Positions 908-61,158 of a stretch of 64,000 nt of DNA are shown here, one piece after another. Both the position numbers and the translations under genes were made by a program. The DNA is from Alphaproteobacteria bacterium UBA3760 (GTDB taxonomy: Bacteria > Pseudomonadota > Alphaproteobacteria > Rs-D84): NCBI GenBank assembly GCA_002371155.1, contig DFGC01000010.1, positions 740 through 64,739 of the forward strand, in the 5' to 3' direction. Under the pieces are notes generated by a model. That model made no database searches. It was not told where the DNA came from and was given only the letters and a program-made list of their open reading frames with translations. Within the stretch, counting starts at the first letter, position 1, and the number at the start of each line of letters is the position of its first letter.

Positions 908-4507
<3,600 letters not shown>

Positions 4508-4518
4508 AGGGAAAAGAT

Positions 4519-6090
4519 ATGGTTCAATACTTAAACAATAATAATTCTGGTTTTTCTGCATGGATGGCGGCGCAAAATAATAATGCACCCCGTCGTTCGC
4601 GATTTGGAACATTTTTATGGTGGACATTTTTGTTCTTGGTTGCATGGTGGATTGTTGGTTTGTTTATAACCCCATCAACCCCAGAAAACAGTGCGCCTGT
4701 GTCTGATACAACGGTGTTGGTTGATGTGTCAAATGTGCCGTTAAACACAATTTCGTCTGACACTATTTCCGCAGATGTCCGCGGATTGCGTGTATCGAAC
4801 ATAGATTTGAAAAATTATGCGAAATCATCATCTGATGCAACGCCGGTGCGTTTGATTGACGGCAACGCATTTATTGAAATCGGATTGACACCAAATGGCA
4901 CAACCGCACCAACGGCAACAACGGTATGGAAAAAATCTGGGGACAATATGATTTGGCGCAACCCAGACGGTGTGGAATTTTCGCGCAATATTACAACAGA
5001 CGGCTATTTAATAAAAATCACAGATACAATAAAAAATAATTCTAAGCATAGTTTTTCATTTGCGCCATACGCGCGTGTTGTGCGTGCCGGAAATAATACT
5101 GATTCTGCAGGGGTATATACGGGTTCGGTTGCGTATGTCAATAATGATCTGGAACATAACGCGTGGCGTAAAATGGATAAAAAATCATACGCATACACAA
5201 CGACATCTGGGTTTGTTGGATTCGTTGACCAATATTGGGAAACGGTTGCGAACATTGATTCGCCTGACCAAACAATGCGCATAAAAAAGCAGGGCGATTT
5301 ATACGATGCGGGCGTTGTCGCGGCACCTGTGAATATTGCGGCGGGCGACACACGCACAATCACAACAAATGTTTTTGCCGGTCCCCGCGACAGAAATATT
5401 CTGAAAACGGCAAACACGACAATAAACGGTATTATTGAATCGGTTGATTATGGGTGGTTTTGGTTCTTGGCGCGTCCGATGTTGTGGTCAATAAATGCGA
5501 TTCATAAATTCGTAATGAATTACGGATTGTCGATAATCATATTTACAATTTTAATAAGAATTTTAATGTGGCCATTGACACGTAAATCATATACTTCGAT
5601 GATTGCAATGCAGAAAATGCAGCCTGAATTGCAACGCGTGCAAAAATTATATGCCAATGACAAATCGCGCATGCAAATGGAAATGATGCGTATATATCAA
5701 ACACATAAAACATCGCCGATGTCTGGGTGTTTGCCAATGTTGATTCAGATTCCCATTTTCTTTGCGTTATACAAGGCTTTATTGATATCGGTTCAAATGC
5801 GCAACGCACATTTTTTATGGATATCTGATTTGGCAACGATGGACCCATACTTTATATTGCCGATTTTAATGGGGGCAACAATGTGGTTGCAACAATATTT
5901 GCAATCGAACAAAACAGATACATCAAATCCAAATGACATCGCGGCACAAACGGCGAAAACGATGAAATGGATGCCGATTTTATTCACGATAATGTTTGCG
6001 TGGATGCCGGCGGGTTTGGTGTTATATTGGACTGTGTCGAACATATTTGGTATTGGTCAAATGATGTGGTTAAAACATAAATCAAAATAA
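4519..6090 (+). CDS. yidC: Membrane protein insertase YidC
   Basis: N-terminal TM segment, a large periplasmic domain, then the conserved core MQKMQPELQRVQKLYANDKSRMQMEMMRIYQTHKTSPMSGCLPMLIQIPIFFALY. Confidence 0.92.
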   Translation: MVQYLNNNNSGFSAWMAAQNNNAPRRSRFGTFLWWTFLFLVAWWIVGLFITPSTPENSAPVSDTTVLVDVSNVPLNTISSDTISADVRGLRVSNIDLKNYAKSSSDATPVRLIDGNAFIEIGLTPNGTTAPTATTVWKKSGDNMIWRNPDGVEFSRNITTDGYLIKITDTIKNNSKHSFSFAPYARVVRAGNNTDSAGVYTGSVAYVNNDLEHNAWRKMDKKSYAYTTTSGFVGFVDQYWETVANIDSPDQTMRIKKQGDLYDAGVVAAPVNIAAGDTRTITTNVFAGPRDRNILKTANTTINGIIESVDYGWFWFLARPMLWSINAIHKFVMNYGLSIIIFTILIRILMWPLTRKSYTSMIAMQKMQPELQRVQKLYANDKSRMQMEMMRIYQTHKTSPMSGCLPMLIQIPIFFALYKALLISVQMRNAHFLWISDLATMDPYFILPILMGATMWLQQYLQSNKTDTSNPNDIAAQTAKTMKWMPILFTIMFAWMPAGLVLYWTVSNIFGIGQMMWLKHKSK

Positions 6091-6108
6091 ATTGTCAGGG
6101 GAATAAAA

Positions 6109-7155
6109 ATGTTAAATATAATTAAAAGTTTATTTGGGCCGCGTGGCATAAAAATAACTGCGGGTGAATTGGCGGAAAAGTTTGGATTGGAATTGCGTGG
6201 TGATAAAAATGCGGTTGTGCGTGGTGTTGCACCAATCGCCGATGCACGCCCGGGACAACTGGCATTTTATTCAACTGAACAAAACAGCAGTGCATTCAAA
6301 ATATTGCCGATTGATGTGTTGCGCAAAACGCGTGCAACGGTAATTTTGTTGCAACCGGCGCAAATCAATGATGCACCAAATGGCGCGACATTGTTGATAA
6401 CCGATACTCCGCGCGGGAACATTGTAAAAATATTGGGTGAAATTTATCGTGAAAAACCGCGTTTCGGGGTCAGTTCCGATGCTCGTGTTGAACGCGGTGT
6501 GTTTTTTCGTTCACGCAAAACAAATTATGTTGGACAATTTGCAACGATTGAACGCGGCGCGGTGATTGAACCGGGGGTTAAAATTTATCCTGGTGCATAC
6601 ATTGGTCGCAATGTTTCGTTGGGGCGGGGCACAATCGTGCACAGTGGCGCACACATTGAAAACGCAACAATTGGCGCAGATTGTGTTATAAATGCAAACG
6701 CGGTAATTGGTAAAAACGGATTTGGATATACACGCCAAAACGGAAAAAATGTTTTTATCCCGCATGTCGGTCGCGTTGTATTGGGCGACCGTGTGTCTGT
6801 TGGTGCAAACACGTGTATTGACCGTGGCGCAATGACTGATACGGTTGTGGGCGACGGCACAAAAATAGATAACCTGTGCCAAATTGCACATGGTGTTGTT
6901 ATTGGTCAAGAATGTTTCTTGGCGGCATGCACCGGATTGGCGGGCGGAACGGTTATTGGTGATCGCACATTATTGGCGGGAAATGTTGGTGTCGCAAACG
7001 GTGTTCACATTGGCGACGATGTCGAAATTGGTGCAAAAAGTGGCGTGTTCAGAAATATTCCATCTGGGGCCCGGGCAATGGGATACCCTGCGGCGGTTGG
7101 TATGGAATTTTTCCGCAATTACGCATGGTTGCGCAAACATGCAAACAAAGATTAA
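6109..7155 (+). CDS. lpxD: UDP-3-O-acylglucosamine N-acyltransferase
   Basis: LpxD-type N-terminal domain ([12 protein letters not shown]...PGQLAFY) followed by long left-handed beta-helix hexapeptide repeats. Confidence 0.9.
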
Positions 7156-7160
7156 ATTTT

Positions 7161-7373
7161 TTATCGATACAGGTCGGCATTTGCCGACTTCTTTTTTGCA
7201 TTTTTTACATCAAACACAACCCAATCCCATGGCACAATCAATTTAACCTCGTTCTGGGTATCATACGGCACACCACCGGTTGCATCTGGTTCAGCGGGGG
7301 TACTGACCCATTCGGATACCTTGTTGCAACCAGAAAACATCAACATAAATAAAGACAGTAAAATAACTTTCAT
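7161..7373 (-). CDS. Small putative lipoprotein
   Basis: 70 aa. N-terminus MKVILLSLFMLMFSGC has a lipobox-like FSGC. No family recognised. Confidence 0.45.
   Translation of the reverse strand: MKVILLSLFMLMFSGCNKVSEWVSTPAEPDATGGVPYDTQNEVKLIVPWDWVVFDVKNAKKKSANADLYR
7173..7197 (+). terminator. Rho-independent terminator after lpxD
   Basis: GTCGGC-ATTT-GCCGAC hairpin followed by TTCTTTTTT. It overlaps the 3' end of the minus-strand small ORF. Confidence 0.7.
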
Positions 7374-7520
7374 CTATCGCCCGCAAATCACAATATAATT
7401 ATACCTAATTTTCGCAATTATTGCAATAGGCATAGATGTTTTGATTTGCTTTTGTTTCCAAAAAGTTGTATTTTTAACGAACTTGTCGTTTTTTTAATAT
7501 AAACAAGGGTGATGTTGATT

Positions 7521-8084
7521 ATGACCAGTATAGATAAAAATCCAGATATATCAGAAATCCGAAAACATTTTAATTTTTATCAAACACGCGTTTTACCACA
7601 TGTTGAATTATGCGCAACGCAAAGTCCGGACGGTTGCCATGCATTGCATAAACATACGGCATCTGTTGTTTTTCGTGGCATAGATTATGCGATGTCATTA
7701 AATGAAAATCCAATACCGGTTATATTTGCGTCGGCATTTCATGATATGGCGCGCACACATGACGCGTGGGATACGGCGCATGGCGCAAACGCGGTTGATG
7801 GCGCAAAAAAAATAATGAAAAATTTTTCAGGTATTTTATCAACCAATGACATGGAAAAAATAATTTATGCAATTATAAATCATACAACCGGAACGCGCGC
7901 CCCGGATTATGTGTCTGCGTGTCTGTGGGACGCGGACAGAACGCGCCTGTCGTGGTTATATGGATATGATGCCGGATTTTTCAATACCGAACGCGGAAAA
8001 TATGTTGCGTCCCACGATTGGAAAAATTATATAGATTTCCAAAAACAATGTTTTCCAAATTTATTTTGGTCGCATGAATGTTGA
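7521..8084 (+). CDS. HD-domain protein (putative metal-dependent phosphohydrolase)
   Basis: His...HD...D pattern (HALHKH, AFHDMAR, LWDADRTR). Start set at ATG 7521, which has AAGGGTGA 9 nt upstream. In-frame alternatives exist at 7509 and 7512. Confidence 0.55.
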   Translation: MTSIDKNPDISEIRKHFNFYQTRVLPHVELCATQSPDGCHALHKHTASVVFRGIDYAMSLNENPIPVIFASAFHDMARTHDAWDTAHGANAVDGAKKIMKNFSGILSTNDMEKIIYAIINHTTGTRAPDYVSACLWDADRTRLSWLYGYDAGFFNTERGKYVASHDWKNYIDFQKQCFPNLFWSHEC

Positions 8085-8116
8085 AAAAAACCGGCAATTT
8101 TGCCGGTGTTTTTTTT
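8084..8116. terminator. Bidirectional terminator
   Basis: A-run, ACCGGCA-ATTT-TGCCGGT hairpin, then T-run. Lies between the stop at 8084 (+) and the stop at 8118 (-). Confidence 0.8.
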
Positions 8117-8117
8117 G

Positions 8118-9137
8118 TTAAAATTCAACCTTTAATGCGGCGGCCAAAAATGGCTTTTTGCTGGTCAAACCGATGGATGTCCAAACCGATACATTTTCAC
8201 TGTATTTATACCGGGTTGAAAATATTGCGGTGTGGTCATAATATTTTTCCATGTCATCATGCCAAATGCCGGTATGCGAATACATATACGACAAAGACAA
8301 CGAATAATTCAGAACATCATAACTGACCCCGGTTCCCGCCGAAATACCATCGCCCGCAACACCGACCGGTTTTTCATCATAAATTGCGACCACAGATGTT
8401 CCCCAAATCCAACTGTTATATTGTAAATTAAATCCGACCGAACCTTGGGCGCGCCAATCGGCGAATATATCTGGGGCATATGTTGCGGCACTGAACCCAC
8501 GTGGGGAATCCATATACGATGCCCCCAATGATATTGCAGATTTTAATTTTCCATTTGGGAATCTGAATTTTATACCACCATCAATCGCGTAATCATAATC
8601 ATCGCCCAGACCACTGACCGACAAACCATATTGACCAATATTTGTTGGCACACTTACCAAATTTACACGCGGTGTATCATGTCCCGTTGTTACGGTTATA
8701 TCTGGAATAACCGCGCCTTTGGGTGAAATTTTTTTATAAAATAATGGTTTATGATTCACGCGCAATCCGCCAACATCAGGGATTCCAACACTTAATTTAC
8801 GTGCCACCGATGAAGTATATCCAACCTCGATACGACCAATATCTTGGATTTCCCACAATGCAAACGCATCGTGTGCAAAATCATGGTCATCTAAACTTTC
8901 CGAATCATATTCATAAACCAAACCCAATGTTTGTCCGCGTGCAACGGCATAGTTATATTTTGCACCAACCTCGAAATCACCCAAGAACAATGTGTCCTTG
9001 AATTCGGGTTCTATAACCCCCGCCGACCCTGATGCATCGAATCGAAACACATGGCGACCATTATTGTATTGCAACGCATTTGCAGAATTAACGACCGCAA
9101 ATGATAAAATAAAACCACCCAAAACGATTTTTTTCAT
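8118..9137 (-). CDS. Outer-membrane beta-barrel protein (porin-like)
   Basis: Signal peptide MKKIVLGGFILSFAVVNSANA, alternating beta-strand pattern, and a C-terminal AALKVEF ending in Phe. Its start ATG shares one base with the rpoH stop (TAATG). Confidence 0.7.
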   Translation of the reverse strand: MKKIVLGGFILSFAVVNSANALQYNNGRHVFRFDASGSAGVIEPEFKDTLFLGDFEVGAKYNYAVARGQTLGLVYEYDSESLDDHDFAHDAFALWEIQDIGRIEVGYTSSVARKLSVGIPDVGGLRVNHKPLFYKKISPKGAVIPDITVTTGHDTPRVNLVSVPTNIGQYGLSVSGLGDDYDYAIDGGIKFRFPNGKLKSAISLGASYMDSPRGFSAATYAPDIFADWRAQGSVGFNLQYNSWIWGTSVVAIYDEKPVGVAGDGISAGTGVSYDVLNYSLSLSYMYSHTGIWHDDMEKYYDHTAIFSTRYKYSENVSVWTSIGLTSKKPFLAAALKVEF

Positions 9138-10051
9138 TATTGTTCTCCATTTGTTTCTTTCAGTATAGCATCACGCAATTTTTGATATGCGCGTTCCTCA
9201 ATTTGTCGCACGCGTTCGCGCGAAATTCCGTATTTTTGTGATAAAAATTCCAAAGTTGGTGCGGGGTCCGACAATCGGCGCGCTTGTAATATTTCGCGTT
9301 CGCGTTGTGGTAAATCGCCCAGATGTTTTCGTAATAATTCATATCCGCGTTTTTTGAATTCCAACTGTTCTATTGCGTCTTCGATTCCGACCTTGTCATC
9401 AGACAAATTTGATAAAATATCATGTGCATCCGCATCATTATGTGCCGGCGAATTTAACGACACATCGCGCGCACCGATTCGACGCGACATGCGCGATACA
9501 TCATTTTCAGACACATTTAAATAATCCGCAATTTGTCGTGTTTGGTCCGAATTCAGGTTGTTATCCATAATTCCCAATGCGCGTTTTGCCCGTGCCAGGT
9601 TAAAGAATACGCGTTTCTGATTTGCCGATGTTCCAATTTTTACAATCGACCAATTATTCAGAATTGTTTCATAAATTTCAGCCTTGATCCAAAACATGGC
9701 ATATGTTGAAAATCGAAAACCGCGTTCGGGGTCAAATTTTTGTAACGCCTGCATCAAACCCATATTCCCAGACGCGATTAAATCAGCCACCGGCACGCCA
9801 TAATTTTTGAAATCATACGCAACCGACACAACCAACCTCAGGTGTGATGCCACCAATTTTTCAGCCGCCACCGAATCTTTATTTTTGACCCATTGGCTTG
9901 CATATTCATATTCTTGTTCGGCGGACAAAATAGGGTATTTCTGAATACTTTGTATATATTGTGCCAACCCCGATTCGTCACTGACCCCGCGGGCGGCGAC
10001 AATACCGTTATTTACATTTGCCGGCAAAGTATTCTTGATTTGCTTTTTCAT
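9137..10051 (-). CDS. rpoH: RNA polymerase sigma-32 (heat-shock sigma factor)
   Basis: Sigma-70 family regions 2 and 4 (YGISRERVRQIEERAYQKLR), plus an RpoH-box-like QKRVFFNLARAKRAL between regions 2 and 3. Confidence 0.88.
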   Translation of the reverse strand: MKKQIKNTLPANVNNGIVAARGVSDESGLAQYIQSIQKYPILSAEQEYEYASQWVKNKDSVAAEKLVASHLRLVVSVAYDFKNYGVPVADLIASGNMGLMQALQKFDPERGFRFSTYAMFWIKAEIYETILNNWSIVKIGTSANQKRVFFNLARAKRALGIMDNNLNSDQTRQIADYLNVSENDVSRMSRRIGARDVSLNSPAHNDADAHDILSNLSDDKVGIEDAIEQLEFKKRGYELLRKHLGDLPQREREILQARRLSDPAPTLEFLSQKYGISRERVRQIEERAYQKLRDAILKETNGEQ

Positions 10052-10103
10052 AACTTTTATAGTATATCATAAATTATGAATTATCAAGAACAGGAGATAA
10101 AAA

Positions 10104-10769
10104 ATGGCAAGCATCCTTGACAGGAAAAAAAATATGAAACCGGCAACCCCCAAAAAAACGCGCGAAGATTACGCCGAAGATGCACTTTATCGCGAGGTTT
10201 GGGAAGATGTGAACAACGAAAAAACAATCGCGTTTTTCAAGAAATATTCTAAACAAATGATTGGCGGTGTTTTGGCAATACTGATTATTGTTGCGGGATA
10301 CCAAATCGGTGTTCGCACATATCGCGCAAATCAAATGGAAATGGCGGTAAAATATGAAACCGCATTGGAAAAAACAGATGTAAATGCGCTGGCATCTATT
10401 GGGGAAAATGGACGCGGTGCAAATGCAGATTTGGCAATGTTTCAATCATACGCATTGGACAAAGATAACAAAGATATTAAAAAATTAGAAACATTGGCGG
10501 AACATGGAAATACTCGCGATTTTCGTGATTTGGCGCGTCTGCATGTTGTTGGTGCGCGCGGTGATGAAATGACGGGCCGCGATGTTGAAAAATATTTGTC
10601 TGAATTAAACACAAAATCATCGCCATTTTATTACACCGCAATGTTGACAATTGCACAAAAATATTTATCCGAAGGCGACACCGACGCGGCAAATAAATGG
10701 TTGGATAAAATTTTGTCTGACGACGATTGTCCGGCGGAAATAACCGGTGTCGCACAGACATTAAAATAA
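10104..10769 (+). CDS. YfgM-like TPR membrane protein
   Basis: Charged N-terminus, one TM (MIGGVLAILIIVAGYQIG), then a helical repeat region. It lies directly upstream of a BamB-like lipoprotein gene, matching the yfgM-bamB arrangement known from proteobacteria. Confidence 0.55.
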   Translation: MASILDRKKNMKPATPKKTREDYAEDALYREVWEDVNNEKTIAFFKKYSKQMIGGVLAILIIVAGYQIGVRTYRANQMEMAVKYETALEKTDVNALASIGENGRGANADLAMFQSYALDKDNKDIKKLETLAEHGNTRDFRDLARLHVVGARGDEMTGRDVEKYLSELNTKSSPFYYTAMLTIAQKYLSEGDTDAANKWLDKILSDDDCPAEITGVAQTLK

Positions 10770-10788
10770 ATCCCGGGGGGAAAACATT

Positions 10789-11520
10789 ATGCGTAAATTT
10801 GCATTGTTTTGTTGTTGTGTTTTTGCATTGGGCGCGTGTGATAAACACGACCCAATTTTGCCGGGTGTTCGGACGGCAATTTTTGATTCGTCGGATGATG
10901 TAAATATGTTAAATACATCTGTCCCAGATTTGCCGGACGCGGCACCTGTGCGTGTTGTAAAAAAATGCGAATTTACAATTGATGGAACAAATACGATTCG
11001 CGATGGTAATAATAACAAGATTTTTGTTGGTTTCCCATCGTCAAATTACATAGATATAAAAACATATCCGGTGTGTGATGATAATTATGTTTATGCGGGA
11101 TTAAATACGGGTAATGTTGTGAAAATCGCACCTAAATCGCGTCGTGTTATGTGGATGGCGGATGTGTATGCCGAATCGAATATGATGGGTGGCGCGGCAA
11201 ATGTTGATATTGTTGCCCCGATTGTATTGGATGGCGAATATTTATACGCCGGTGGTGTTGGCAATGCGTTTTGTAAAATAAAATCATCGAACGGTTCTAA
11301 AAAATGGTGCAATTCAATCGGCACGCGTTTTCCATTTGTAGTATTAAAAAATGTGGCATATATAACTGGTATGGATGACGCGTTATATGCGGTGCGTTTA
11401 ACCGATGGCGCGGTATATTGGAAAACAAAATTGAAAAATGTTGCGGCACCAAAATATGATAATACAAGAATAATCGTTGGGCGTGAAACATTTGACGCAT
11501 CAAACGGACAAAAATTATAA
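10789..11520 (+). CDS. Short BamB-like PQQ-repeat lipoprotein
   Basis: Lipobox FALGAC. Repeated beta-propeller-like units (YVYAGLNTGNVVKI, YLYAGGVGNAFCKIKSSNGSKKW, ALYAVRLTDGAVYWKTKL). Only 243 aa. Confidence 0.55.
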   Translation: MRKFALFCCCVFALGACDKHDPILPGVRTAIFDSSDDVNMLNTSVPDLPDAAPVRVVKKCEFTIDGTNTIRDGNNNKIFVGFPSSNYIDIKTYPVCDDNYVYAGLNTGNVVKIAPKSRRVMWMADVYAESNMMGGAANVDIVAPIVLDGEYLYAGGVGNAFCKIKSSNGSKKWCNSIGTRFPFVVLKNVAYITGMDDALYAVRLTDGAVYWKTKLKNVAAPKYDNTRIIVGRETFDASNGQKL

Positions 11521-12463: not shown

Positions 12464-14851
12464 TCAGTTTACATCAAATGGGGGAAAACAATCGCCACCG
12501 TTATCCGGGCAACAATTAAACCCTTGGTCGCCCATATCGGTATATGTTTCGCCCGGACAGCATCCGTATTGATCGGGTGCAACGCCGTCGCAGTCCAATC
12601 CAGGAACCGCCACTTCCTGGACAGACGAATTTGTTTTTTCAAATGGATTTTTGATATTTCCATTTTCATCATATTGCAATCCCAAAATATCTTTATTGTA
12701 TGCATTGGTTTGTTCTTCTGTGCGGTTGTCGGCCGTTCCATATGTGTTTTGGAAAGCCTGTTGTTGACTGTTATAATACGCATCATATTTGGCCTGGTTT
12801 ATCGCTTGATAATTTTGCGATTGGCAATACGCCAAAACTGTTCTGTAATCATATCCCGCATTTGATATATCCAACGCCTTGTTTGAATCAACCGTCCATA
12901 CACCCTTGGAATCTTGGACACAATATTGTCCCAGATTAAACGAACGCACCTGACCGGTCCACGACGGGTCATTTAAATTTACGTCTATTTTGTTATTTAC
13001 ATCGGACCATTTACGACGCGTTTGTTCATTGTATGGGTGAAATGCGCATTTTTTACCCTCGTTTTCATCGCCACATGTTGCAATCAAATCGACCGGCGAA
13101 TACACCGTAATACGCGTTCCTGCCGCAATAGAAAACGGTGGCACGGTATTATCCAACGCATCCACAATCAGTTTTTGTGCGACCTGATTCCATGCAGAAA
13201 TAACCTCATTTTTTGCCAATTCAGACGAACGCACCGTTCCCGATTGCACAACGGTATTATTGTCCAAATCAATCTGATTTACAAATGTATCCGCAATTGG
13301 TGCAATCATATTCACCGCCGCCGGTATAATGGCGGTCAACAACGGCATAACCATTTGTTCGATATAATCGGTACTGCCATATCCGGGAACACCAACACGA
13401 CCCTGGGAATCACCAGAATACGGGTCTTGGTCTTTATCGAAATTAAATTCAACGCCATCTGGACGAATAAATTGATACCAATTTATTTGCATACGACCAA
13501 TTGTTTTATATGGTCCCGGCAATTCACCTTTTAGATACCCCAACAACAATGTTCCTGTCGGCAAAATTATCGTGCGCCCATTATCAGAATAAACATTTCT
13601 GTCCACCGTTGCACGAACCGGAATACCGCCACCATCACATTTGGTTTTGCCATTTTCGGTTTTGCAACCATAAATCGATGGGTCGGCGCGAACCTCGGAT
13701 ACAATTGTCGCCGGAATTGGTTTGAATTGGCGCAATATAAATGTGCGGTCATACGGACGCGATGAATACACGGATTCCGCCCCCTGGGCAGACCCCTGTA
13801 ATGCTTTTTTGTCGACTTCATTTGTTTTGAAATGCATACCCGCTGTACCGGATTCTTTGACAAATGTTCCCTTTAAATTTCCCATACCGTTTAATTTGCC
13901 ACCCGACACCGCCGCACCGCGCACAGCAACCGCCGACGGCTTTGATTTTAATGCCGGCACAGTATTTTCATCAAAACTCAATTTTATATGGTCGGCATCG
14001 GTTCCGATTTTGCGCCCAGATTCATCGGTTATAATCCCGGTATCTGGATTATAAATCCCCGTTGGATTATTGCAGTCAACATCAGAATACGGATGGAATT
14101 CATACCGACCACCATTTGGTTTTATCCAACCAATTTGCACACCCGACACATTATACCCCGGCATGGCAAAATCCGAACACCGTTCCGCCCGACGAAATAC
14201 CGGTTCGGGTTCTGGCAAATCTTGTCTGAAAATATTGTCGCCCGCACCGATAACGCCACTGTTGTTCGGTTGACTTGGTGTGGGGATGTCTGAAAAATCA
14301 ATATCCGGTTCTGATTCCACCGGCACAGGTTGCGCAACAACGGGGGCCTTGGTGCTGACCGGGATAATGATACTTGTGCTTTGTGGGTTTATTTCACGCG
14401 AATCACCCATATCATGCCATTCAACAACCAAAATAACATCACCCGCCGCATCGGTATCTTTTGGGGCAAATGCCACATCAATTTTGCACGCAATATCTTG
14501 ATTCACAGGTTGATTTTTGCAACCCGATGTTTGTGCCGAAAACCCAGGCACCGTTTTTTGCACCATAACCGAATCGATAACCACATTATCAGACGCACTG
14601 ATTTTGAAAACCTGTTTTGCCTTTTCGCCAATTTCCGTATCAGAAAAATCTGCATCACGCGGAACAATATTTAATTCAACGATTCGATTTTGTTGCACCG
14701 TTTGGACATCAGGCGTTTTTTTCTTGTGCATCAGTAAAAACAGTAAAACCAACACGACAACAAATGCGACCGCCAACAACATCCAACGGACATTGCGTGG
14801 CGTTGCATCAAATGTTTCCTTGAATTTGCCGGTTATAGTATTATTCGCCAT
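12464..14851 (-). CDS. virB10: VirB10/TrbI-family protein with extended N-terminal region and Cys-rich C-terminal tail
   Basis: TM segment (WMLLAVAFVVVLVLLFLL), Pro-rich linker (PVVAQPVPVESEPDIDFSDIPTPSQP) and a TrbI-like barrel core (IPVRATVDRNVYSDNGRTIILPTGTLLLGY ... GRMQINWYQFIRPDG ... DSQGRVGVPGY ... AAGTRITVY). A further 206 aa with many Cys follow the core. Confidence 0.82.
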   Translation of the reverse strand: MANNTITGKFKETFDATPRNVRWMLLAVAFVVVLVLLFLLMHKKKTPDVQTVQQNRIVELNIVPRDADFSDTEIGEKAKQVFKISASDNVVIDSVMVQKTVPGFSAQTSGCKNQPVNQDIACKIDVAFAPKDTDAAGDVILVVEWHDMGDSREINPQSTSIIIPVSTKAPVVAQPVPVESEPDIDFSDIPTPSQPNNSGVIGAGDNIFRQDLPEPEPVFRRAERCSDFAMPGYNVSGVQIGWIKPNGGRYEFHPYSDVDCNNPTGIYNPDTGIITDESGRKIGTDADHIKLSFDENTVPALKSKPSAVAVRGAAVSGGKLNGMGNLKGTFVKESGTAGMHFKTNEVDKKALQGSAQGAESVYSSRPYDRTFILRQFKPIPATIVSEVRADPSIYGCKTENGKTKCDGGGIPVRATVDRNVYSDNGRTIILPTGTLLLGYLKGELPGPYKTIGRMQINWYQFIRPDGVEFNFDKDQDPYSGDSQGRVGVPGYGSTDYIEQMVMPLLTAIIPAAVNMIAPIADTFVNQIDLDNNTVVQSGTVRSSELAKNEVISAWNQVAQKLIVDALDNTVPPFSIAAGTRITVYSPVDLIATCGDENEGKKCAFHPYNEQTRRKWSDVNNKIDVNLNDPSWTGQVRSFNLGQYCVQDSKGVWTVDSNKALDISNAGYDYRTVLAYCQSQNYQAINQAKYDAYYNSQQQAFQNTYGTADNRTEEQTNAYNKDILGLQYDENGNIKNPFEKTNSSVQEVAVPGLDCDGVAPDQYGCCPGETYTDMGDQGFNCCPDNGGDCFPPFDVN

Positions 14852-14880
14852 ATCTCAATCCATTTATTATAAATTCCAAA

Positions 14881-16392
14881 TTACTGTATTCTGACAACGC
14901 GACATCCGGAAACCTGGAATTTCATCAGTTTATCGCATAATGTTTGTGCCGTATCAATATCTTCGATTGGGCCGATACGCAATCTGTATAAACGCGCCGC
15001 CGATGCGTTTGAACCTAAATCGCCAACACCTTGTTCATCAACCGCATAAAACACTTTGTTTTGATACGGTGTCAACAAACCCGAACCATTGTCGCCACTG
15101 AATTTTGCCAATAATTCAGACCAATAATCGTCCAAAGCCTTGACCGATGTGTCGGACGCAAATTCAACCGCCACCCCCGATTGGTTTGATGAAATCAGTG
15201 GTATATTTGTTTGTGGCAAATATGACCCGGCGGTATCACGACTGGTTGGAATCATATATGGTGTACCCGATGCCGCACGCGCAGGTTGTGCGGGGGCCTG
15301 ATACCCAGCGGGGATATAAACACCATTGCCATACATATTTTGCGTGTTTGACATATAGATTGGTGTGCCGGTGTAATCCATAACCGACGCATTCATTGCC
15401 GCCGTATCATCCGCATATGCAATGTTGTTCAACGATTGACCAGACATCATACTCTGCGCAACATTCGCCTCGGCCAAAGCCATAACCGATGCCGTGTCGG
15501 CAATCAAGAACGGTTTTTCGCGTTTTTTAATGCAAACAATGCGTTGACCACTACGCAAAACCATATCGCCCACCGCTTCGACAATCAGCAATCTGCCGTC
15601 TTGACCATCGGTGCGGAAACCGACCGGCGATTCGCCACCTTCGATTAAAAGTGATACGACCGGACGCTGTGTCATTGCGATAACTTTGTCGCCAAAGTCA
15701 ATATATGTGAAAATCTTGTCGCGCCACACGCGTTCAGGTGCAATTACATAATCGTCCGGATTTGGAACAAAAATATCCAAATCAAATCTGAATTCAGACG
15801 GGTCAATTTTCATAGATTTAATCCACGCATAATCTTCGCCATCAACACCAACGGTATTCGATGCCGGTGCCGCCTTTTTGAATATAGAATTCATTCCGCC
15901 CGATGTCCGCGCAGATGTTGCCCCGCCATTGGATATTGTTGCGCCATTATCCAAAACAACATCAACCTGGGAATAAGAAATTTCGGACGAATCTATACCA
16001 GAACTGGTTAAATAGAATATGTATTTATTTCCCGATTGTCCCGTCACAATCATATTTGTATCCGATTCGGTTGCCTCAATCGGGGTTATATATAATGTTT
16101 TGTCGCCCTGGGTTGCCTCGATTTGGAACAAAGATTGGTCGCCCACCACCGCGTCGGCAATTTGTTCACCGTTTGGCAATGTGACCATGGTCACCATACC
16201 ATTACGCAATTTTAATGGTAAAACAGTCCCCTTGGACCATGCCAGTTGCGCATATCCCGGTTTAATACTGCCCGATGCCATATTTGCATTTGGATTTTCC
16301 CATGCGCGCTGAATTCCCGCACCATACGCCACCCCCACAGATGATAACGCAATCATGCAAATCAACCCATTCAATCTCAAAAATCTAAGCAT
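14881..16392 (-). CDS. virB9: VirB9/CagX/TrbG-family protein fused to a C-terminal SPOR-like domain
   Basis: Signal peptide. N-domain: LPLKLRNGMVTMVTLPNGEQIADAVVGD ... TNMIVTGQSGNKYIFYL. C-domain: VWRDKIFTYIDFGD ... GFRTDGQDGRLLIVEAVGDMVLRSGQRIVCI. The tail VAVEFASDTSVKALDDYWSELLAKF ... LYRLRIGPIEDIDTAQTLCDKLMKFQVSGCRVVRI matches the SPOR pattern. Confidence 0.8.
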   Translation of the reverse strand: MLRFLRLNGLICMIALSSVGVAYGAGIQRAWENPNANMASGSIKPGYAQLAWSKGTVLPLKLRNGMVTMVTLPNGEQIADAVVGDQSLFQIEATQGDKTLYITPIEATESDTNMIVTGQSGNKYIFYLTSSGIDSSEISYSQVDVVLDNGATISNGGATSARTSGGMNSIFKKAAPASNTVGVDGEDYAWIKSMKIDPSEFRFDLDIFVPNPDDYVIAPERVWRDKIFTYIDFGDKVIAMTQRPVVSLLIEGGESPVGFRTDGQDGRLLIVEAVGDMVLRSGQRIVCIKKREKPFLIADTASVMALAEANVAQSMMSGQSLNNIAYADDTAAMNASVMDYTGTPIYMSNTQNMYGNGVYIPAGYQAPAQPARAASGTPYMIPTSRDTAGSYLPQTNIPLISSNQSGVAVEFASDTSVKALDDYWSELLAKFSGDNGSGLLTPYQNKVFYAVDEQGVGDLGSNASAARLYRLRIGPIEDIDTAQTLCDKLMKFQVSGCRVVRIQ

Positions 16393-16414
16393 CTTTCCTT
16401 CCTTTGTTCTTTTA

Positions 16415-17113
16415 TTATTCTTTTGATGCCCAATTTAACGGGTCATCGTCCAGAACACGCCCTTGGTTATCAATAACATCATATTCGATAACACGAATTC
16501 CCAATGGGTTTTCCATACGATCCGCCCATTTAACCGCACCCGCCGCCGTCGATTGTAATTTTACCCGCAATTTATACTGTTGTATATACTGTTGGTTTTT
16601 TAATGCCCCATATCGACAAATATATGTAAAATTCACCGTATATGTATCTTGGGCATTGGTTTGCGGCACGACATAGAATTTTTCAGGAAATTCCACATCG
16701 CATTTGATATTAAACGCCTCGTCTAAATCTTGACGGATGATATTTACCATATCGGTCATGGCAAATTTTCCAAACACCGCATCCGACGAACGGGTTTTGA
16801 CCGTGCCCGTTGGACTGTTTGCCCATTTTGCGCGCATAATCGCCAAATCAGGCACAATTTCGTTTCTTTCGCGCACATATTCGCGAATGAAATCGACCTT
16901 GTATTTTGTCAAATCCTGGGGTTTTGGCATTTCGGTCAGCGTCAATTCACGATTTTCCGTCATTTGCGTGGTCAAGAAAAACACCTGGGGGCGATTCAAC
17001 GGGAACATTTTATCCAGTGTTAAAACCAACACAAACAGCACGACCGACGCAACAGCCATGACAAACGTCATCAGACGAGATATTAAAATTGGCGGTTCTA
17101 TGCGGTCTTGCAC
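16415..17113 (-). CDS. virB8: VirB8-family protein
   Basis: A single N-terminal TM, then a periplasmic domain ending in the VirB8-type NPLG motif (RMENPLGIRVIEYDV). Start set at GTG 17113, which has GGGGGAG 7 nt upstream. The ORF-track start at 17170 is a TTG. Confidence 0.78.
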   Translation of the reverse strand: MQDRIEPPILISRLMTFVMAVASVVLFVLVLTLDKMFPLNRPQVFFLTTQMTENRELTLTEMPKPQDLTKYKVDFIREYVRERNEIVPDLAIMRAKWANSPTGTVKTRSSDAVFGKFAMTDMVNIIRQDLDEAFNIKCDVEFPEKFYVVPQTNAQDTYTVNFTYICRYGALKNQQYIQQYKLRVKLQSTAAGAVKWADRMENPLGIRVIEYDVIDNQGRVLDDDPLNWASKE

Positions 17114-17140
17114 AGTTTTTCTCCCCCTTGGATTATTTTG

Positions 17141-17170
17141 ATTGTAGACAAAATAAATATACCCGCGCAA
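17141..17170 (-). promoter_or_regulatory. Candidate sigma-70 promoter for the virB8-10 operon
   Basis: On the minus strand: TTGCGC, 18 nt, TACAAT. Located about 28 nt upstream of the GTG start. Confidence 0.35.
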
Positions 17171-17337: not shown

Positions 17338-17411
17338 AGGGGCTTAGTTCAACGGTAGAATATCGGTCTCCAAAACCGCGGATAAGGGTTCGATTCCTTT
17401 AGCCCCTGCCA
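17338..17411 (+). tRNA. trnW: tRNA-Trp (anticodon CCA)
   Basis: Cloverleaf: AGGGGCT acceptor, anticodon loop CTCCAAA, T-loop TTCGATT, encoded CCA end. It has one U-C mismatch at the top of the anticodon stem. The position upstream of secE-nusG is classical. Confidence 0.85.
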
Positions 17412-17492: not shown

Positions 17493-17672
17493 ATGAAAAA
17501 AATATTGGAATATATAAAATCTGTTCGTGCCGAATGGTTCAAAATTGTTTGGCCGTCGCGCGATACGGTTGTTCGTTCTACTATAATGATTTTGGTTTTT
17601 TCCGGGTTGGCGGCACTGTTTTTCTTTGTCGTGGACAGTATTCTGAACGCGTTGATGAACTGGATTTTCTAA
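17493..17672 (+). CDS. secE: Preprotein translocase subunit SecE
   Basis: A 59-aa ORF absent from the track: MKKILEYIKSVRAEWFKIVWPSRDTVVRSTIMILVFSGLAALFFFVVDSILNALMNWIF. This is the typical single-TM SecE, sited between tRNA-Trp and nusG. Confidence 0.85.
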   Translation: MKKILEYIKSVRAEWFKIVWPSRDTVVRSTIMILVFSGLAALFFFVVDSILNALMNWIF

Positions 17673-20115: not shown

Positions 20116-20481
20116 ATGGCAGACATTCAAAAATTAGTTGAAGAATTGTCAAAATTGACTGTTATGGAAGCAGTTGAACTGTCCAAAGCATTGGAAGAAA
20201 CATGGGGCGTCAGTGCGGCGGCCGCGGTTGCGGTTGCTGCGGGTCCGGCGGCGGCGGCGGCTGAAGAAAAAACAGAATTTGATGTTGTTTTGGCCGAGGC
20301 CGGTGCAAACAAATTGGCTGTTATCAAAGCGGTCAAAGACATCACAGGTTTGGGTTTGAGCGAAGCCAAGGCTTTGGTTGAATCTGCACCTAAGGCTGTC
20401 AAAGAAGGCGTTGCCAAAGAAGAAGCCGAAAAAATGAAGGCAACTTTGGAAGCCGCTGGCGCAAAAGTAGAAATGAAATAA
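20116..20481 (+). CDS. rplL: 50S ribosomal protein L7/L12
   Basis: N-terminal dimerisation helix, Ala-rich hinge, and C-terminal domain [24 protein letters not shown]. Confidence 0.97.
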
Positions 20482-20527
20482 TTTTTACAAAAATTGCTAA
20501 TCGCACAAACTTGCGATTCGTGTCCAT

Positions 20528-20555
20528 GCCCGCCGGAATTTTTTTCCAGGCGGGC
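20528..20555 (+). terminator. rplL-rpoB intergenic hairpin (attenuator-like)
   Basis: GCCCGCCGG / CCAGGCGGGC stem with a T-rich loop and no clear T-run after it. Located where a partial terminator is known in other bacteria. Confidence 0.45.
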
Positions 20556-20622
20556 GTTGGGCGAAAAATACATACGAAAAATTTCGTTTGCAAAACGCAC
20601 ATAAAAAAAAGGATTTATACCC

Positions 20623-23600
20623 ATGGCAGTTATCCAGAAATTTAGAAAATCTTTTGGCAAAAGTTTTTTGCAAACTCCACTTCCCGATTTGGTTGAAATT
20701 CAATACAACTCTTACAAAGATTTTTTGCAGGCCGATGTTGCCCCACAAAATCGTGAAAACAAAGGGTTGCAGGCCGTTTTCACATCTATGTTTCCGATTA
20801 AAGATTATGCCGGAATCGCGGATTTGGAATTTGTTGAATATACACTGGAAAAACCCGTATATAACGTCAAAGAATGTATGTTGCGCAATTTGACATATTC
20901 GCGCAGATTAAAGGTCAAATTAAGACTTATCTTGTGGGATGTCGCCGAAGATGGCAAAAAAACATTGCGTGATATCAAAGACCAAGAAATATTCATGGGT
21001 GATGTTCCGTTAATGACCGAACGTGGCAGTTTTATTGCCGCCGGTGTGGAACGCGTTATCGTTTCCCAAATGCATCGTGCCCAAGGTGTCGTTTTTGCAA
21101 CAACCAAAGAGGCCAAAATTGCTGGCAATCCAACAACATATACGGCGCGTATTATTCCCGAACATGGGTCATGGATTGATTTCGAAGAATCCAAAGGCGT
21201 GATTTATGTTCGTATCGACCGTCGTCGCAAAATTCCGGCAACGGTTTTGTTGCGTTGCTTGCCCTGTGCCGAAGATGAAAAGAAATGGGCGGCTGACCCG
21301 CGCAAGGCAAATGTTCGCGGAATGTCTGATACGGAAATTTTGTCGGCATTTTATAAATCAATTCCATTGTCATTTGATGGCAAGGTTTGGGTTGGCGACA
21401 CATCTGTATTCGACGGATTGGATAAATACCGTTTGAATTACGATTTGTTGTCGGTCAAAGGCGACAAAGAATTGGCAAACAAAGGCGACAGATTGTCTGC
21501 AAAACGTTTGTCGAAATTGATGTCATCTGCAAAACAATTTGGTATTAAACCTGAATCATTGGTTGGTGAATTTTTGTTCGAACCAATTACATCTGCGGGC
21601 GAAGTTGTATATCCATCTGGAACCGAAATCACCGAAGAAATTTTGTCTGATTTGGATAAAATGGGTGTTAAAAAGATTTCGATTATCGCGATTGATAACA
21701 CAACAATCACCGCGCATATGCGTAATACATTGGCGGCGGACAAAATCACAAATCGCGATGATGCATTGATTGAAATTTATAATGTTATCAGACCAGGTGA
21801 ACGTCCCACGGTCGAGGCTGCATTGGGATTATTCCTGCGCCAAGGATTCGACGCGGCATATTATGATTTATCGGCGGTTGGTCGTTTCAAGATGAACAAA
21901 CGTTTGAAAATCGATTCTGGTAAACGCCCCGAAGATGAACGTTTATTGACCAAGGCTGATTTCTTGGCGGTATTGAAAACATTAACAAATATTATTGACC
22001 ACAAAGATACAATTGATGATATCGATAATTTGTCGAACCGTCGTGTTCGCGCGGTTGGCGAATTGTTGGAACAAACTTTCCGCACGGGGATGTTGCGTAT
22101 TGAACGTCTGGTTCGCGAAAGTTTGTCTTCGCCGAATATCGCAAATATGCAACCCCAAGATGTTATCAATGTTAAACCTTTGATGTCATTGGTTTCTGAA
22201 TTTTTGGGAACATCACAATTATCTCAGTTTATGGATGCGTATAATCCATTGTCTGAATTGGAACACAAACGTCGTATTTCTGCATTGGGGCCTGGCGGGT
22301 TAAATCGTGAACGCGCGGGTATCGATGTCCGCGACGTGCATCCAACACACTATGGTCGTTTATGCCCAATTCACACCCCCGAAGGTGCCAACATCGGTTT
22401 GATAAACCATTTGGCATCATATGCGCGTGTGAACAAATACGGATTTATCACAACCCCATATTACGAGGTTAAAAACGGCAAAGTCACCGATAAAATCGTG
22501 TATTTGACGGCTGATGAAGAAATGGGACACAAAATCGCCCAGGGTAATACACCAACTAATAAAGATGGTAAATTGACTGGCGATGTCGTGACTGCGCGTG
22601 TTGATGGCGAATTTACGATGGTTCCAACCGAAGAAATTGATTTAATTGACGTTGAACCGCGTCAGGTGGTGTCCATTGCAACCGGATTGATTCCGTTCGT
22701 TGAAAACGACGACGCGAACCGTGCGTTGATGGGTTCGAACATGCAACGCCAAGGCGTTCCATTATTGCGGGTCCAGGCCCCATTGGTCGGAACCGGTATC
22801 GAACGCGAGGTTGCACGTGATTCCCGCACCGGCAAGGTTGCAAAACACAGTGGTGTTGTGGAATCTGTGGATGCAAACCGTATCGTGGTTAAATGTATGA
22901 ATTCACGCAATGTTGTGACCGGTGTTGATATTTACAACTTGGAAAAATTCGAACGTTCCAACAGTGAGACATTGATTCATCAAAAACCGTTGGTCAAGGT
23001 TGGCGACCGCGTATCGGCGGGCGATGTTATTGCCGATGGTTCGTCAATGAATTATGGTGAATTGGCATTGGGTCGCAATGTGTTGGTTGCATTCGTGCCA
23101 TGGCGTGGTTATAACTATGAAGACGCGATTGTGATTTCCGAACGCATTTCACGTGAAGACGCATTCACATCTGTCAAAATCGTTGAAAAAGAATTCAAGG
23201 TTCGTGATACCCAATTGGGCCCAGAAAGTTTCACTCGCGACATTCCAAATGTCAGTGAAGAGGCGGTTAAAAACCTGGACGAATCTGGTATCATCTATGT
23301 TGGTGCGCGTGTAAAGCAGGGCGATATTTTGGTCGGTCGTGTTTCCCCAAAATCGGAAACATTATTGACCCCCGAAGAGGCACTGCTGCGCAACATCTTT
23401 GGTGAAAAGGCATTAAATGTCAAAGATACATCTTTGCGCGTTGGTCCAAATGAAGAAGGAACCGTTATCGGTGTCAATGTTTTAACCCGTCATGGTGTTA
23501 AAAAAGACGAACGCACACAAATGATTGAATTGGAAAAAATCGCCAAAATCAACAAAGACAGAAACGAAGAAATCGCAATCATCGAAAAAGGTTTTGCTGA

Positions 23601-38702: not shown

Positions 38703-38793
38703 ACATGTTATGTTAAAACACAAAATAAAAAAATCCAGTAAATCATTTTTTTTAGTTGCATTGGATATAAAAATTGTTTCATAATGGTTGCAA

Positions 38794-40266: not shown

Positions 40267-40291
40267 CATAAAAAATATGCGGGGTTGGCGA

Positions 40292-42119: not shown

Positions 42120-42206
42120 AGATATTTAGTAATTAAAATAAATCTGTTGATATATGGGGTTTGTTTTGCTATTCTTTTTACACAATATATAAAGGATAAA
42201 AAATAA

Positions 42207-43169: not shown

Positions 43170-43171
43170 AA

Positions 43172-46834: not shown

Positions 46835-46917
46835 AATAAATGCAAATTTTTCATAAAAATATCTTGCGTGATTTGTATAGTATTTTCTATAATACCATCA
46901 CGATAAAAGGAGAATTT

Positions 46918-61141: not shown

Positions 61142-61158
61142 TCTCGTTCTCTCCAATC

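Follow-up and report, generated by a model that had tools for sequence, protein, structure and literature searches.

A VirB9-family protein with a divergent SPOR-family domain at its C-terminus and its possible attachment to peptidoglycan

How type IVA secretion systems pass through the cell wall, and by what means they are fixed or positioned there, is poorly understood, and the clearest case available is that of DotK in the type IVB system of Legionella. A 64-kb stretch of alphaproteobacterial DNA (hereafter, the window) bears on this question through a gene for a VirB9-like protein that had been described, from inspection of its sequence, as ending in a SPOR-like peptidoglycan-binding domain. 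If so, VirB9-SPOR would be a natural case of a core subunit that itself carries a tethered wall-binding-type domain. The preliminary description knew of no such fusion. In the literature library searched, no publication names both VirB9 and a SPOR domain, and among the listed papers that join SPOR domains to type IV secretion no such fusion is apparent from titles and abstracts. The questions addressed here are whether the tail is a SPOR domain, whether it is truly part of VirB9, and what it might do for the secretion system.

The virB9 gene, its neighbours and its VirB9 domains

The gene lies in an operon with two other vir-type genes:

16415-17170, minus strand: virB8-like gene, directly upstream of virB9 in the same operon (Pfam VirB8, PF04335)
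14881-16392, minus strand: virB9-SPOR fusion gene, a single continuous open reading frame of 503 aa plus a stop codon
12464-14851, minus strand: virB10-like gene of 795 aa, directly downstream of virB9 in the same operon

The intergenic gaps are 22 nt between virB8 and virB9 and 29 nt between virB9 and virB10, and the same gene order, with virB9 flanked by virB8 and virB10, is conserved at loci L001, L083, and L084. The virB8-like product scored 24.7 bits against PF04335 (cut-off 23.2), and the syntenic virB8 gene at L001 also has this domain; the TTG at 17170 may be upstream of the real start of the window's gene. The virB10-like product matched both Pfam TrbI (PF03743, E 2.8e-14) and the NCBIfam model T4SS_VirB10 (E 2e-15). 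Within the 64-kb window, Pfam detected no virB4, virB11, virD4, or virB6; at the distant locus L083, a gene for a VirB11-like ATPase adjoins virB10. The preliminary description also proposed that the fusion could compensate for a missing VirB1; within the 64 kb analysed, positions 40277-41320 encode an MltB-like lytic transglycosylase.

By its sequence, the protein is a divergent member of the VirB9 family and not an equivalog of the Ti-plasmid proteins. Residues 49-290 matched Pfam CagX/VirB9 (PF03524) across profile positions 5-197 of 198 (E 3.1e-22; 79.8 bits, cut-off 34.2), and the equivalog level of NCBIfam was missed, with 56 bits for TIGR02781 (VirB9; cut-off 217.7) and 15.6 bits for TIGR02775 (TrbG; cut-off 180.85). 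The AlphaFold model of the full-length protein comprises three folded modules (an N-terminal domain, a C-terminal domain, and the tail), with pLDDT below 50 at residues 155-196 and 293-398, and its best Foldseek matches are Xanthomonas citri VirB9 (6gyb_B, E 3e-16) and the TrwF/VirB9 of R388. The parts of the protein are as follows:

16321-16392, minus strand: predicted Sec signal peptide, residues 1 to ~24 (...SSVGVAYG/AG), a hydrophobic N-terminus followed by A-x-G, read from the sequence
15952-16254, minus strand: VirB9 N-terminal (I-layer) domain, residues 47-147, an AlphaFold beta-sandwich matched by Foldseek
15523-15780, minus strand: VirB9 C-terminal (O-layer, VirB7-binding) domain, residues 205-290, matched by Foldseek
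15199-15516, minus strand: flexible linker, residues 293-398 (~105 aa), with pLDDT below 50 over 293-349 and 351-398
14884-15198, minus strand: divergent SPOR domain, residues ~399-503, from Pfam, AlphaFold, Foldseek, profile search, hhalign, and a residue census

AlphaFold additionally places a helix at residues 2-18, in the signal-peptide region. The N-terminal domain resembles that of TrwF/VirB9 (Foldseek target-normalised TM [TMt] 0.78 for 7o3t_B and 0.83 for 8rt6_v), and the C-terminal domain resembles TraO (2ofq, TMt 0.79) and X. citri VirB9 (2n01, TMt 0.69), with further matches to 3jqo_B and 7o3j_B. The protein thus has what VirB9, TraO, TrwF, and CagX of type IVA systems have, namely a signal peptide, N-terminal I-layer and C-terminal O-layer domains, the virB8-virB9-virB10 gene order, and the Pfam CagX domain (structures 6gyb, 8rt6, 7o3t, 2ofq, and 3jqo), and it differs from them in the addition of a disordered linker of about 105 aa and a SPOR domain of about 100 aa. 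Since the matched VirB9, TrwF, and TraO chains have at most about 250 residues, they leave no room for such a C-terminal tail.

The low confidence of the model at residues 293-398 bears out the low-complexity linker of about 100 aa noted previously. Within it, a helix at about residues 304-313, a variable low-complexity stretch (residues 331-385, rich in A, G, M, N, P, S, T, and Y), and a pre-SPOR motif, TAGSYLPQxNIPLIxSNQ, can be distinguished, with conservation of 0.92, 0.61, and 0.87, respectively. Mean column conservation is 0.84 in the tail and 0.83 in the VirB9 N-terminal domain, compared with the 0.61 of the variable linker; no part of the protein is more strongly conserved than the C-terminal domain (0.98). 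At about 105 residues, the linker would be long enough for the gap between outer membrane and peptidoglycan, roughly 8-10 nm.

Identity and distribution of the SPOR-family tail

Residues 405-503 (14884-15180, minus strand) read SGVAVEFASDTSVKALDDYWSELLAKF...LYRLRIGPIEDIDTAQTLCDKLMKFQVSGCRVVRIQ, as quoted in the preliminary description. Searched alone, the tail matched Pfam SPOR (PF05036) at 24.1 bits (cut-off 21; E 4.7e-5) over profile positions 40-73 of 76 only, and within the full-length protein the score was 20.6 bits, slightly under the cut-off. The same family was matched by all 20 tails in an alignment of the window's tail with 19 homologues (A1; best E 2.5e-7). An exhaustive search of 1.84 billion representative proteins with a profile of the tail gave 62 hits, consisting of the same family, more distant tailed VirB9 proteins, canonical SPOR proteins, and a small number of LRR proteins from plants; PF05036 was found in 30 of the 33 further hits that were scanned (best E 2.5e-34). 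The plant proteins (P0183, P0185, and P0190) were set aside as repeat-driven false positives. An hhalign comparison of the VirB9 tails with canonical SPOR domains, the latter set being itself picked from the tail-profile hits, gave a probability of 99.3% and an E-value of 3.2e-20 over 80 columns from b1 to b4.

The predicted structure points the same way. AlphaFold models the tail as beta-alpha-beta-beta-alpha-beta (b1, 406-414; a1, 417-431; b2, 447-454; b3, 466-476; a2, 479-491; b4, 498-502) with a pLDDT of 79 and a pTM of 0.70, and the top Foldseek match in the PDB is the SPOR domain of RlpA (6i09_A, also 6i05), at a probability of 1.00, a target-normalised TM of 0.63, and an E-value that is weak (9e-3), with other ferredoxin-like folds close behind. 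The RlpA match was also recovered from the full-length model. Both Pfam and local HMMs (hmmalign of FtsN and of the tail to a canonical SPOR model) align the C-terminal half of the tail alone, and hence the N-terminal half, which includes the cleft strand b1, is the divergent part.

Other searches reached less far. No NCBIfam model matched the tail, and a word-indexed protein search with it returned same-family fragments only, the distant relatives being reached by the exhaustive profile search. Neither the tail nor its profile retrieved a SPOR chain from the PDB by sequence; as the same holds for an undisputed SPOR domain (from P0207), this outcome carries no information. It should be noted that SPOR domains share less than 20% identity with one another (10.1101/2022.07.01.498525). 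Taken on sequence and predicted structure, the tail is a true SPOR homologue, albeit an altered one, and the protein a bona fide VirB9 to which this tail is fused; the SPOR-like domain that had been proposed from its strand and helix pattern is thereby upheld. Annotation can be corrected to match, as full-length proteins have been labelled "TrbG/VirB9 family" only and fragments "SPOR domain-containing protein".

With the SPOR domains of FtsN, DamX, DedD, and RlpA (PF05036), the tail has in common the fold, a b3 strand of the form y-R-L-R-x-G-P with its Arg pair, and a helix a2 followed by a Cys-containing b4. Its nearest sequence relatives are multi-SPOR alphaproteobacterial proteins, and with canonical alphaproteobacterial SPOR proteins it shares a Cys pair between a2 and b4 (C486 and C497, a probable disulfide). 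It differs in its b1 strand, where W-V-Q-L-G-s-F/Y becomes v-A-v-E-L-x-s-D in the VirB9 tails, in a long and poorly ordered b2-b3 loop in the AlphaFold model, and in its carrier, which is a secretion-system subunit instead of a division protein or wall enzyme and for which glycan binding is putative.

Scanning the window and 67 related loci, mostly from Candidatus Enterousia (order Rs-D84), showed the tail in the VirB9 reading frame at all 68, and the same is true of the best 120 protein homologues. Among alphaproteobacterial VirB9-type proteins, about 19 more distant clusters have it too, and it is retained by VirB9 proteins with just 33-45% identity to that of the window. Conservation of the fusion extends over an order of gut bacteria that are uncultured and have reduced genomes, and reaches more distant Alphaproteobacteria whose vir clusters are Rickettsiales-like. 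A tblastn search of 72,556 plasmids with the tail gave no match and, at that sensitivity, the plasmid conjugation systems in this set lack the fusion. An artefact, whether a likeness to SPOR that arose by chance or a pair of genes merged by a sequencing or assembly frameshift, can be dismissed as refuted: the partial, near-threshold Pfam match and the empty PDB sequence searches could be cited for it, and against it stand the same uninterrupted frame at 68 independently assembled loci and in over 120 protein clusters, the hhalign result, the canonical SPOR proteins retrieved by the profile, the predicted SPOR fold, and the equal failure of a bona fide SPOR domain in the PDB.

The glycan-binding cleft

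The residue most strongly conserved in the SPOR cleft, a Gln on strand b1 (FtsN Q251, RlpA Q270), hydrogen-bonds the glycan, and in RlpA, Q270 contacts the NAM(1) lactyl moiety along with the N-acetyl moiety of NAG(2). In the tail encoded in the window this residue is replaced by Glu410, and of 188 distinct VirB9-type tails, 187 have Glu at this position and the remaining one has Asp, with Gln absent throughout. The mapping of Glu to Gln on b1 was obtained from hhalign, from the HMMER alignment of the L083 protein, and from the motif correspondence MVQCGSF / WVQLGSF / VAVEFASD. Further, where RlpA has the aromatic F274, the protein of the window has Asp414, and the clade has Asp or another small or polar residue there. 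The Arg pair of RlpA (R309/R311) is kept, within YRLRIGP, with R470 present in 209 and R472 in 213 of the 215 aligned sequences; the pair maps to FtsN R285. The SPOR domain of a cell-wall enzyme from a related genome retains the canonical cleft motif.

These substitutions matter because of what is reported for other SPOR domains. In FtsN, the Q251E change decreases both septal localisation and binding to denuded glycan (bioRxiv 10.1101/2024.05.13.594014). In RlpA, R309 and R311 form a basic patch for the lactyl carboxylate of MurNAc, and contact between SPOR and glycan is made largely through main-chain atoms (PMC6895207). Given the replacement of Gln by Glu and the loss of the aromatic, canonical glycan binding by the VirB9 tail is doubtful, and the expectation that it would bind denuded strands as division SPOR domains do loses ground accordingly. 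Since the wild-type VirB9 tail bears the very change that disables FtsN, it offers a ready test of the determinants of SPOR specificity and affinity, and also of whether multiple weak sites can together substitute for one strong site.

Possible functions of the tail

Solved VirB9 rings contain 14-16 copies, and a core complex would therefore show 14-16 tethered SPOR domains. It is judged somewhat probable that such a ring, by many weak contacts acting in concert, attaches the core complex to the peptidoglycan of its own cell or positions it there. In this model, VirB9 is the core subunit at the outer membrane in a type IV secretion system that is chromosomal, inherited vertically, and similar to the Rickettsiales vir system, and the host is a reduced-genome, uncultured gut alphaproteobacterium, Candidatus Enterousia of the order Rs-D84. 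We infer that the SPOR-family domain would sit in the periplasm beyond the disordered linker, probably stabilised by its disulfide, that its copy number would follow that of the ring, and that multivalent weak contacts would hold or place the complex on peptidoglycan. The cleft remodelled across the clade, with Gln changed to Glu, the aromatic lost, and the Arg pair kept, therefore probably means that each domain has weaker binding than SPOR domains from division proteins, or recognises a different form of glycan.

Two known systems are instructive. First, Legionella DotK likewise represents a peptidoglycan-binding-type module in a type IV secretion outer-membrane core; its binding to peptidoglycan has been shown, and it is required for polar localisation of Dot/Icm (PMC10266036). 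DotK is a separate OmpA-like lipoprotein, described as homologous to domains that bind meso-diaminopimelate in the stem peptide (PMC10266036), in contrast to the VirB9 tail, which has a SPOR (glycan-strand-binding) fold, is covalently tethered to VirB9, and belongs to a type IVA-like system. Second, PilQ, the secretin of the type IVa pilus, has AMIN domains, which are also wall-binding-type modules inside an outer-membrane channel or core subunit; they bind septal and polar peptidoglycan, bring the secretin to nascent poles, and determine where the machine is assembled (PMC10653833; PMC5285504). Unlike the VirB9 tail, AMIN domains are N-terminal, their fold and machine are unrelated, and their role in localisation is demonstrated, that of the tail being hypothesised.

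Both precedents, along with septal targeting as the characterised role of SPOR domains (10.1101/2022.07.01.498525), would also suit a tail that acts as a positioning cue and not as a static anchor, such that a restricted feature of the wall (septal or new-pole glycan, or an acetylation state) directs the site of core assembly. Binding by DotK tracks the acetylation state of peptidoglycan (PMC10266036), and a Gln-to-Glu change that is fixed across the clade is more in keeping with an altered specificity than with a decaying site. The same change is the one that weakens septal localisation of FtsN, however, and no peptidoglycan deacetylase or amidase was identified within the 64-kb window; this reading, while worth keeping in view, is considered unlikely. 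It overlaps with the anchor reading and predicts localisation beyond attachment. A related and more doubtful proposal is that the Gln-to-Glu change and the loss of the aromatic are an adaptive re-tuning, as opposed to decay, by which a wall feature other than that of the division SPOR domains is recognised, deciding where the machine is built. The ligand could be de-N-acetylated glycan, with the carboxylate pairing with a free amine; the glycan ends bordering the hole through which the machine passes are another candidate. A more extreme version would have the Glu at the RlpA Q270 position confer a predicted wall-cleaving activity, making the tail a built-in substitute for VirB1.

It also seems improbable, if not strongly so, that the SPOR fold has been reused for contact with a protein, such as VirB10, a VirB7-like lipoprotein, another envelope protein, or neighbouring VirB9 subunits, with no binding of peptidoglycan. 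Both glycan-recognition side chains of b1 are lost, one through a known loss-of-binding lesion, and the clade has conserved features of its own that are absent from canonical SPOR domains (the pre-SPOR motif TAGSYLPQxNIPLI and a C-terminal R501-x-Q503); additionally, the VirB10 partners are unusually large, at 795 aa in the window and 2274 aa at L083. Against this, the Arg pair of the basic patch is nearly invariant, the main-chain nature of the glycan contacts means that side-chain changes need not end binding, and a long flexible tether fits a distant layer better than an interface within the complex.

Very unlikely is a surface adhesin, in which the tail would lie outside the cell of an obligate symbiont or parasite and bind wall glycan of a partner or host, or another polysaccharide, for contact-dependent secretion. 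No route is known by which a folded C-terminal domain of VirB9 could cross the outer membrane, and in solved core complexes the VirB9 domains lie on the periplasmic side, with VirB10 forming the outer-membrane channel. The Cys pair is compatible with an extracytoplasmic site but, being present in canonical alphaproteobacterial SPOR proteins as well, is uninformative on exposure. What speaks for an adhesin is that the changes in the cleft hint at some ligand different from canonical denuded glycan and that Rs-D84/Enterousia genomes are smaller than 1 Mb, with a predicted dependence on a partner organism (PMC12306168).

The preliminary description also raised the idea that the tail could compensate for a missing VirB7. 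At the distant VirB9-SPOR locus L083, a gene for a VirB7-like lipoprotein of 58 aa (lipobox LALVAC) lies directly upstream of the virB8 that precedes virB9. As the fusion and a VirB7-like lipoprotein gene coexist there, the proposal that the tail replaces VirB7 is weakened, and the tail would be no simple VirB7 replacement.

The virB8-virB9-virB10 operon

A compact operon of three minus-strand genes in the window encodes VirB8-, VirB9-, and VirB10-like proteins and is flanked upstream by divergent genes:

12464..14851, minus strand: virB10-like gene, 795 aa (TrbI, E 2.8e-14; NCBIfam VirB10, E 2e-15)
14881..16392, minus strand: virB9-SPOR ORF, 503 aa (CagX/VirB9 match and SPOR tail)
16415..17170, minus strand: virB8-like gene (Pfam VirB8, 24.7 bits)
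17338-17411, divergent, upstream: tRNA-Trp
17493-17672, divergent, upstream: candidate secE-like ORF, read by eye
divergent, upstream: nusG
divergent, upstream: two ORFs of ~1,370 aa, putative rpoB and rpoC judging from the syntenic region of L001, a contig of a related genome

These neighbors indicate that the vir cluster is chromosomal, and its position is the same in L001. Pfam detected no virB4, virB11, virD4, or virB6 within the 64-kb window, where the operon (12464-17170) is isolated from other secretion-system genes; any remaining ones must be dispersed, as they are in Rickettsiales. The VirB10 homolog is unusually large. Its residues 59-135 resemble an Ig-like 'choice-of-anchor D' domain (E 1.6e-4, under the curated cut-off) and, past the TrbI domain, a Q/N/Y-rich C-terminal extension of ~200 aa terminates in a Cys-rich stretch, ...CDGVAPDQYGCCPGETYTDMGDQGFNCCPDNGGDCFPPFDVN. 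In L083, a more distant VirB9-SPOR locus, VirB10 (4115-10939) reaches 2274 aa.

Residues 49-290 of the 503-aa protein match Pfam CagX/VirB9 (E 3.1e-22), and in the full-length AlphaFold model residues 47-147, 205-290, and 399-503 each form a folded module, the three being separated by low-confidence segments (residues 155-196 and 293-398). The first two modules superpose in Foldseek on solved VirB9 structures, including X. citri VirB9 (6gyb_B, E 3e-16), the N-terminal domain of R388 TrwF (TM 0.78-0.83), and the C-terminal domains of TraO and X. citri VirB9 (TM 0.69-0.79). The VirB9, TrwF, and TraO chains behind these matches do not exceed ~250 residues, leaving no space for such a tail. The score is far under the NCBIfam equivalog cut-offs, and the protein is a divergent VirB9 rather than an ortholog of the Ti-plasmid protein.

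A SPOR domain fused to VirB9

A preliminary description had placed a SPOR-like domain at 14884-15180 (minus strand), which corresponds to residues 405-503, and the translation is identical to that quoted there. Four independent lines concur that this tail is a SPOR-family domain. First, Pfam SPOR gives the isolated tail 24.1 bits (E 4.7e-5), above the gathering score of 21, and the model matches all 20 tails of an alignment of the window protein and 19 homologs (best E 2.5e-7), the match being confined to the second half of the model. Second, an exhaustive search of 1.84 billion representative proteins with a profile from these 20 tails (E <= 1e-3) returned 62 hits, including members of the same family. 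About 19 more distant clusters share the tail, and all those of sufficient length to reveal a CagX (VirB9) domain have one (P0182, P0184, P0189, P0193, P0194, P0198, P0200, P0203, and P0204). Canonical SPOR proteins were also recovered, PF05036 being present in 30 of 33 further hits scanned (best E 2.5e-34). A few plant LRR proteins among the hits were false positives driven by repeats. Third, profile-profile comparison of VirB9 tails with canonical C-terminal SPOR domains, a set drawn from the tail-profile hit list, gave a probability of 99.3% with E 3e-20, the 80 aligned columns running from strand b1 through b4. Fourth, AlphaFold modeled the tail alignment as beta-alpha-beta-beta-alpha-beta (pLDDT 79, pTM 0.70), with the P. 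aeruginosa RlpA SPOR domain as its top PDB match in Foldseek (6i09 and 6i05; probability 1.00, TM 0.63 by target length, modest E 9e-3), matched anew starting from the full-length model. Generic ferredoxin-like folds rank just below; the fold is insufficient by itself for a SPOR assignment and sufficient alongside the other three lines. The protein is a secreted VirB9 in which a long disordered tether leads to a conserved domain of SPOR fold.

In each of the 68 scanned loci, the window and 67 related ones, the tail is in frame with VirB9; the fusion is therefore real rather than a separate ORF created by a frameshift, and an artefactual tail or fusion deserves virtually no credence. The best 120 protein homologs are all ~500 aa, with at least 69% identity to the window protein. 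A genome scan matched 563 stretches that encode a relative; the 80 best come from gut or rumen MAGs, many of them under the name Candidatus Enterousia. Enterousia belongs to order Rs-D84, and members of this order have genomes of less than ~1 Mb and are predicted to be obligately symbiotic or parasitic (PMC12306168). Over 121 family members, column conservation of the SPOR tail is 0.84, close to the 0.83 of the N-terminal domain, and indicates that the tail is under purifying selection; the C-terminal domain scores 0.98, the pre-SPOR motif 0.87, and the variable linker 0.61. A conserved motif, TAGSYLPQxNIPLIxSNQ, lies N-terminal of the SPOR domain. The fusion extends beyond one genus, as the tail is retained in VirB9 proteins at just 33-45% identity to the window protein. 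Distant VirB9-SPOR proteins carry the source names 'TrbG/VirB9 family', [Alphaproteobacteria bacterium] or [Rickettsiales bacterium], tail fragments are named 'SPOR domain-containing protein, partial', and precomputed Pfam annotation gives PF05036 and PF03524 together for some homologs. The tail was not found on any PLSDB plasmid at tblastn sensitivity.

Remodeling of the binding cleft

In RlpA, Q270 hydrogen bonds to the lactyl group of MurNAc and the N-acetyl group of GlcNAc, F274 stacks against the sugar, and a basic patch is made up of R302, R309, and R311; in FtsN, Q251 corresponds to Q270 and R285 to R309 (PMC6895207). The FtsN sequence and residue numbering were verified against MG1655. 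Strand b1 reads W-V-Q-L-G-s-F/Y in an alignment of canonical SPOR domains (A4) and V-A-V-E410-F-A-S-D414 in the window tail. In an alignment of 215 distinct sequences to the tail model, the cleft Gln position (FtsN Q251) is Glu in 187, Asp in 1, and Gln in none of the 188 VirB9-type tails, and is Gln, His, or Asn in the canonical SPOR proteins of the set. Four residues on, the aromatic position (RlpA F274) holds Asp, Gly, Asn, His, or other small or polar residues in VirB9-type tails and Tyr or Phe in canonical proteins. The b3 Arg pair is retained (R470 in 209/215, R472 in 213/215). On this alignment evidence, the VirB9 SPOR domain has its basic patch intact, its Gln and aromatic replaced, and its cleft remodeled, which is the principal correction to the earlier reading.

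The contig L001 also encodes (20311-21462, minus strand) a PBP5-type DD-carboxypeptidase (Peptidase_S11) whose C-terminal SPOR domain has a canonical b1, VQFGAF versus VAVEL/F in VirB9 tails, indicating that the cleft change is VirB9-tail-specific and not group-wide. The near-invariance of C486 (helix a2, 214/215) and C497 (strand b4, 215/215), a pair common to the closest canonical SPOR domains, makes a disulfide likely. VirB9-type tails terminate in R-x-Q-COOH (R in 195/215, Q in 201/215; residues 501-503, window 14884-14892, minus strand), whereas canonical SPOR domains do not.

None of the components is of a new kind, and secretion machines with wall-binding modules are already known. We found no description of the specific combination, in which VirB9 carries a covalently tethered SPOR domain, conserved order-wide, with a natural 'Q251E-like' cleft; a literature search found no paper pairing 'VirB9' with 'SPOR domain'.

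Possible roles of the tail and other genes in the window

Every solved complex has VirB9 in the periplasm, and on that basis the tail would be periplasmic as well. The 14-16 subunits of a VirB9 ring would display 14-16 tails, and the ~105-residue linker could span to peptidoglycan ~8-10 nm beneath the outer membrane. Given this location, copy number, and reach, we lean towards a model in which the tails act multivalently to attach the core complex to the wall of the cell itself, or to position it there, with sites weakened or re-tuned relative to division SPOR domains. Such logic has precedents in DotK, whose peptidoglycan binding is acetylation-state dependent and which is required for polar Dot/Icm placement (PMC10266036), and in the PilQ AMIN domains, which bring the secretin to nascent poles (PMC10653833). 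A tail acting as a positioning cue instead of an anchor, which overlaps the attachment model, is possible if doubtful. Re-use of the SPOR fold as a protein-protein module appears rather unlikely, and an extracellular adhesin highly improbable.

The tail had also been proposed as a possible stand-in for a missing VirB7 or VirB1. No small lipoprotein gene is recognizable inside the Enterousia cluster. L083 is a Rickettsiales-vir-like cluster whose VirB9-SPOR is among those retaining the tail at low identity, and its gene order is virB8 paralog, 58-aa lipoprotein, virB8, virB9-SPOR, 2274-aa virB10, and virB11:

L083 1395-1571, plus strand: VirB7-like candidate, 58-aa ORF between two virB8 paralogs, lipobox LALVAC

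The sequence of this lipoprotein includes MKKYVFLLGIASVLALVAC, and its coexistence with a fused VirB9 argues that the tail is not simply a VirB7 substitute. The observation made in the preliminary description was borne out, and its interpretation in part.

Elsewhere, many sizeable ORFs of the window (up to 757 aa) gave no match to Pfam at the applied thresholds; they are listed here with three further loci that did match:

8118-9137, minus strand: ORF without Pfam match
32139-34412, minus strand: ORF without Pfam match
46840-47499, 48432-48929, 49502-50494, 53555-59634, and 60092-62406: regions with ORFs without Pfam match
38788-40266, plus strand: 492-aa ORF adjoining the MltB-like gene (weak Pom PF17251 match, E 7.6e-9)
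40277-41320: housekeeping-type MltB-like lytic transglycosylase (SLT_2, E 1.6e-84)
41331-44008, plus strand: tandem paralogous GNAT gene pair, then a PF01553 acyltransferase

PF17251 is the Protochlamydia outer-membrane protein family (Pom). The GNAT pair is of the Acetyltransf_5 / FeeM-like N-acyl amino acid synthase type, and the cluster presumably resembles OlsB/OlsA-type aminolipid (ornithine-lipid) synthesis with the first enzyme duplicated.
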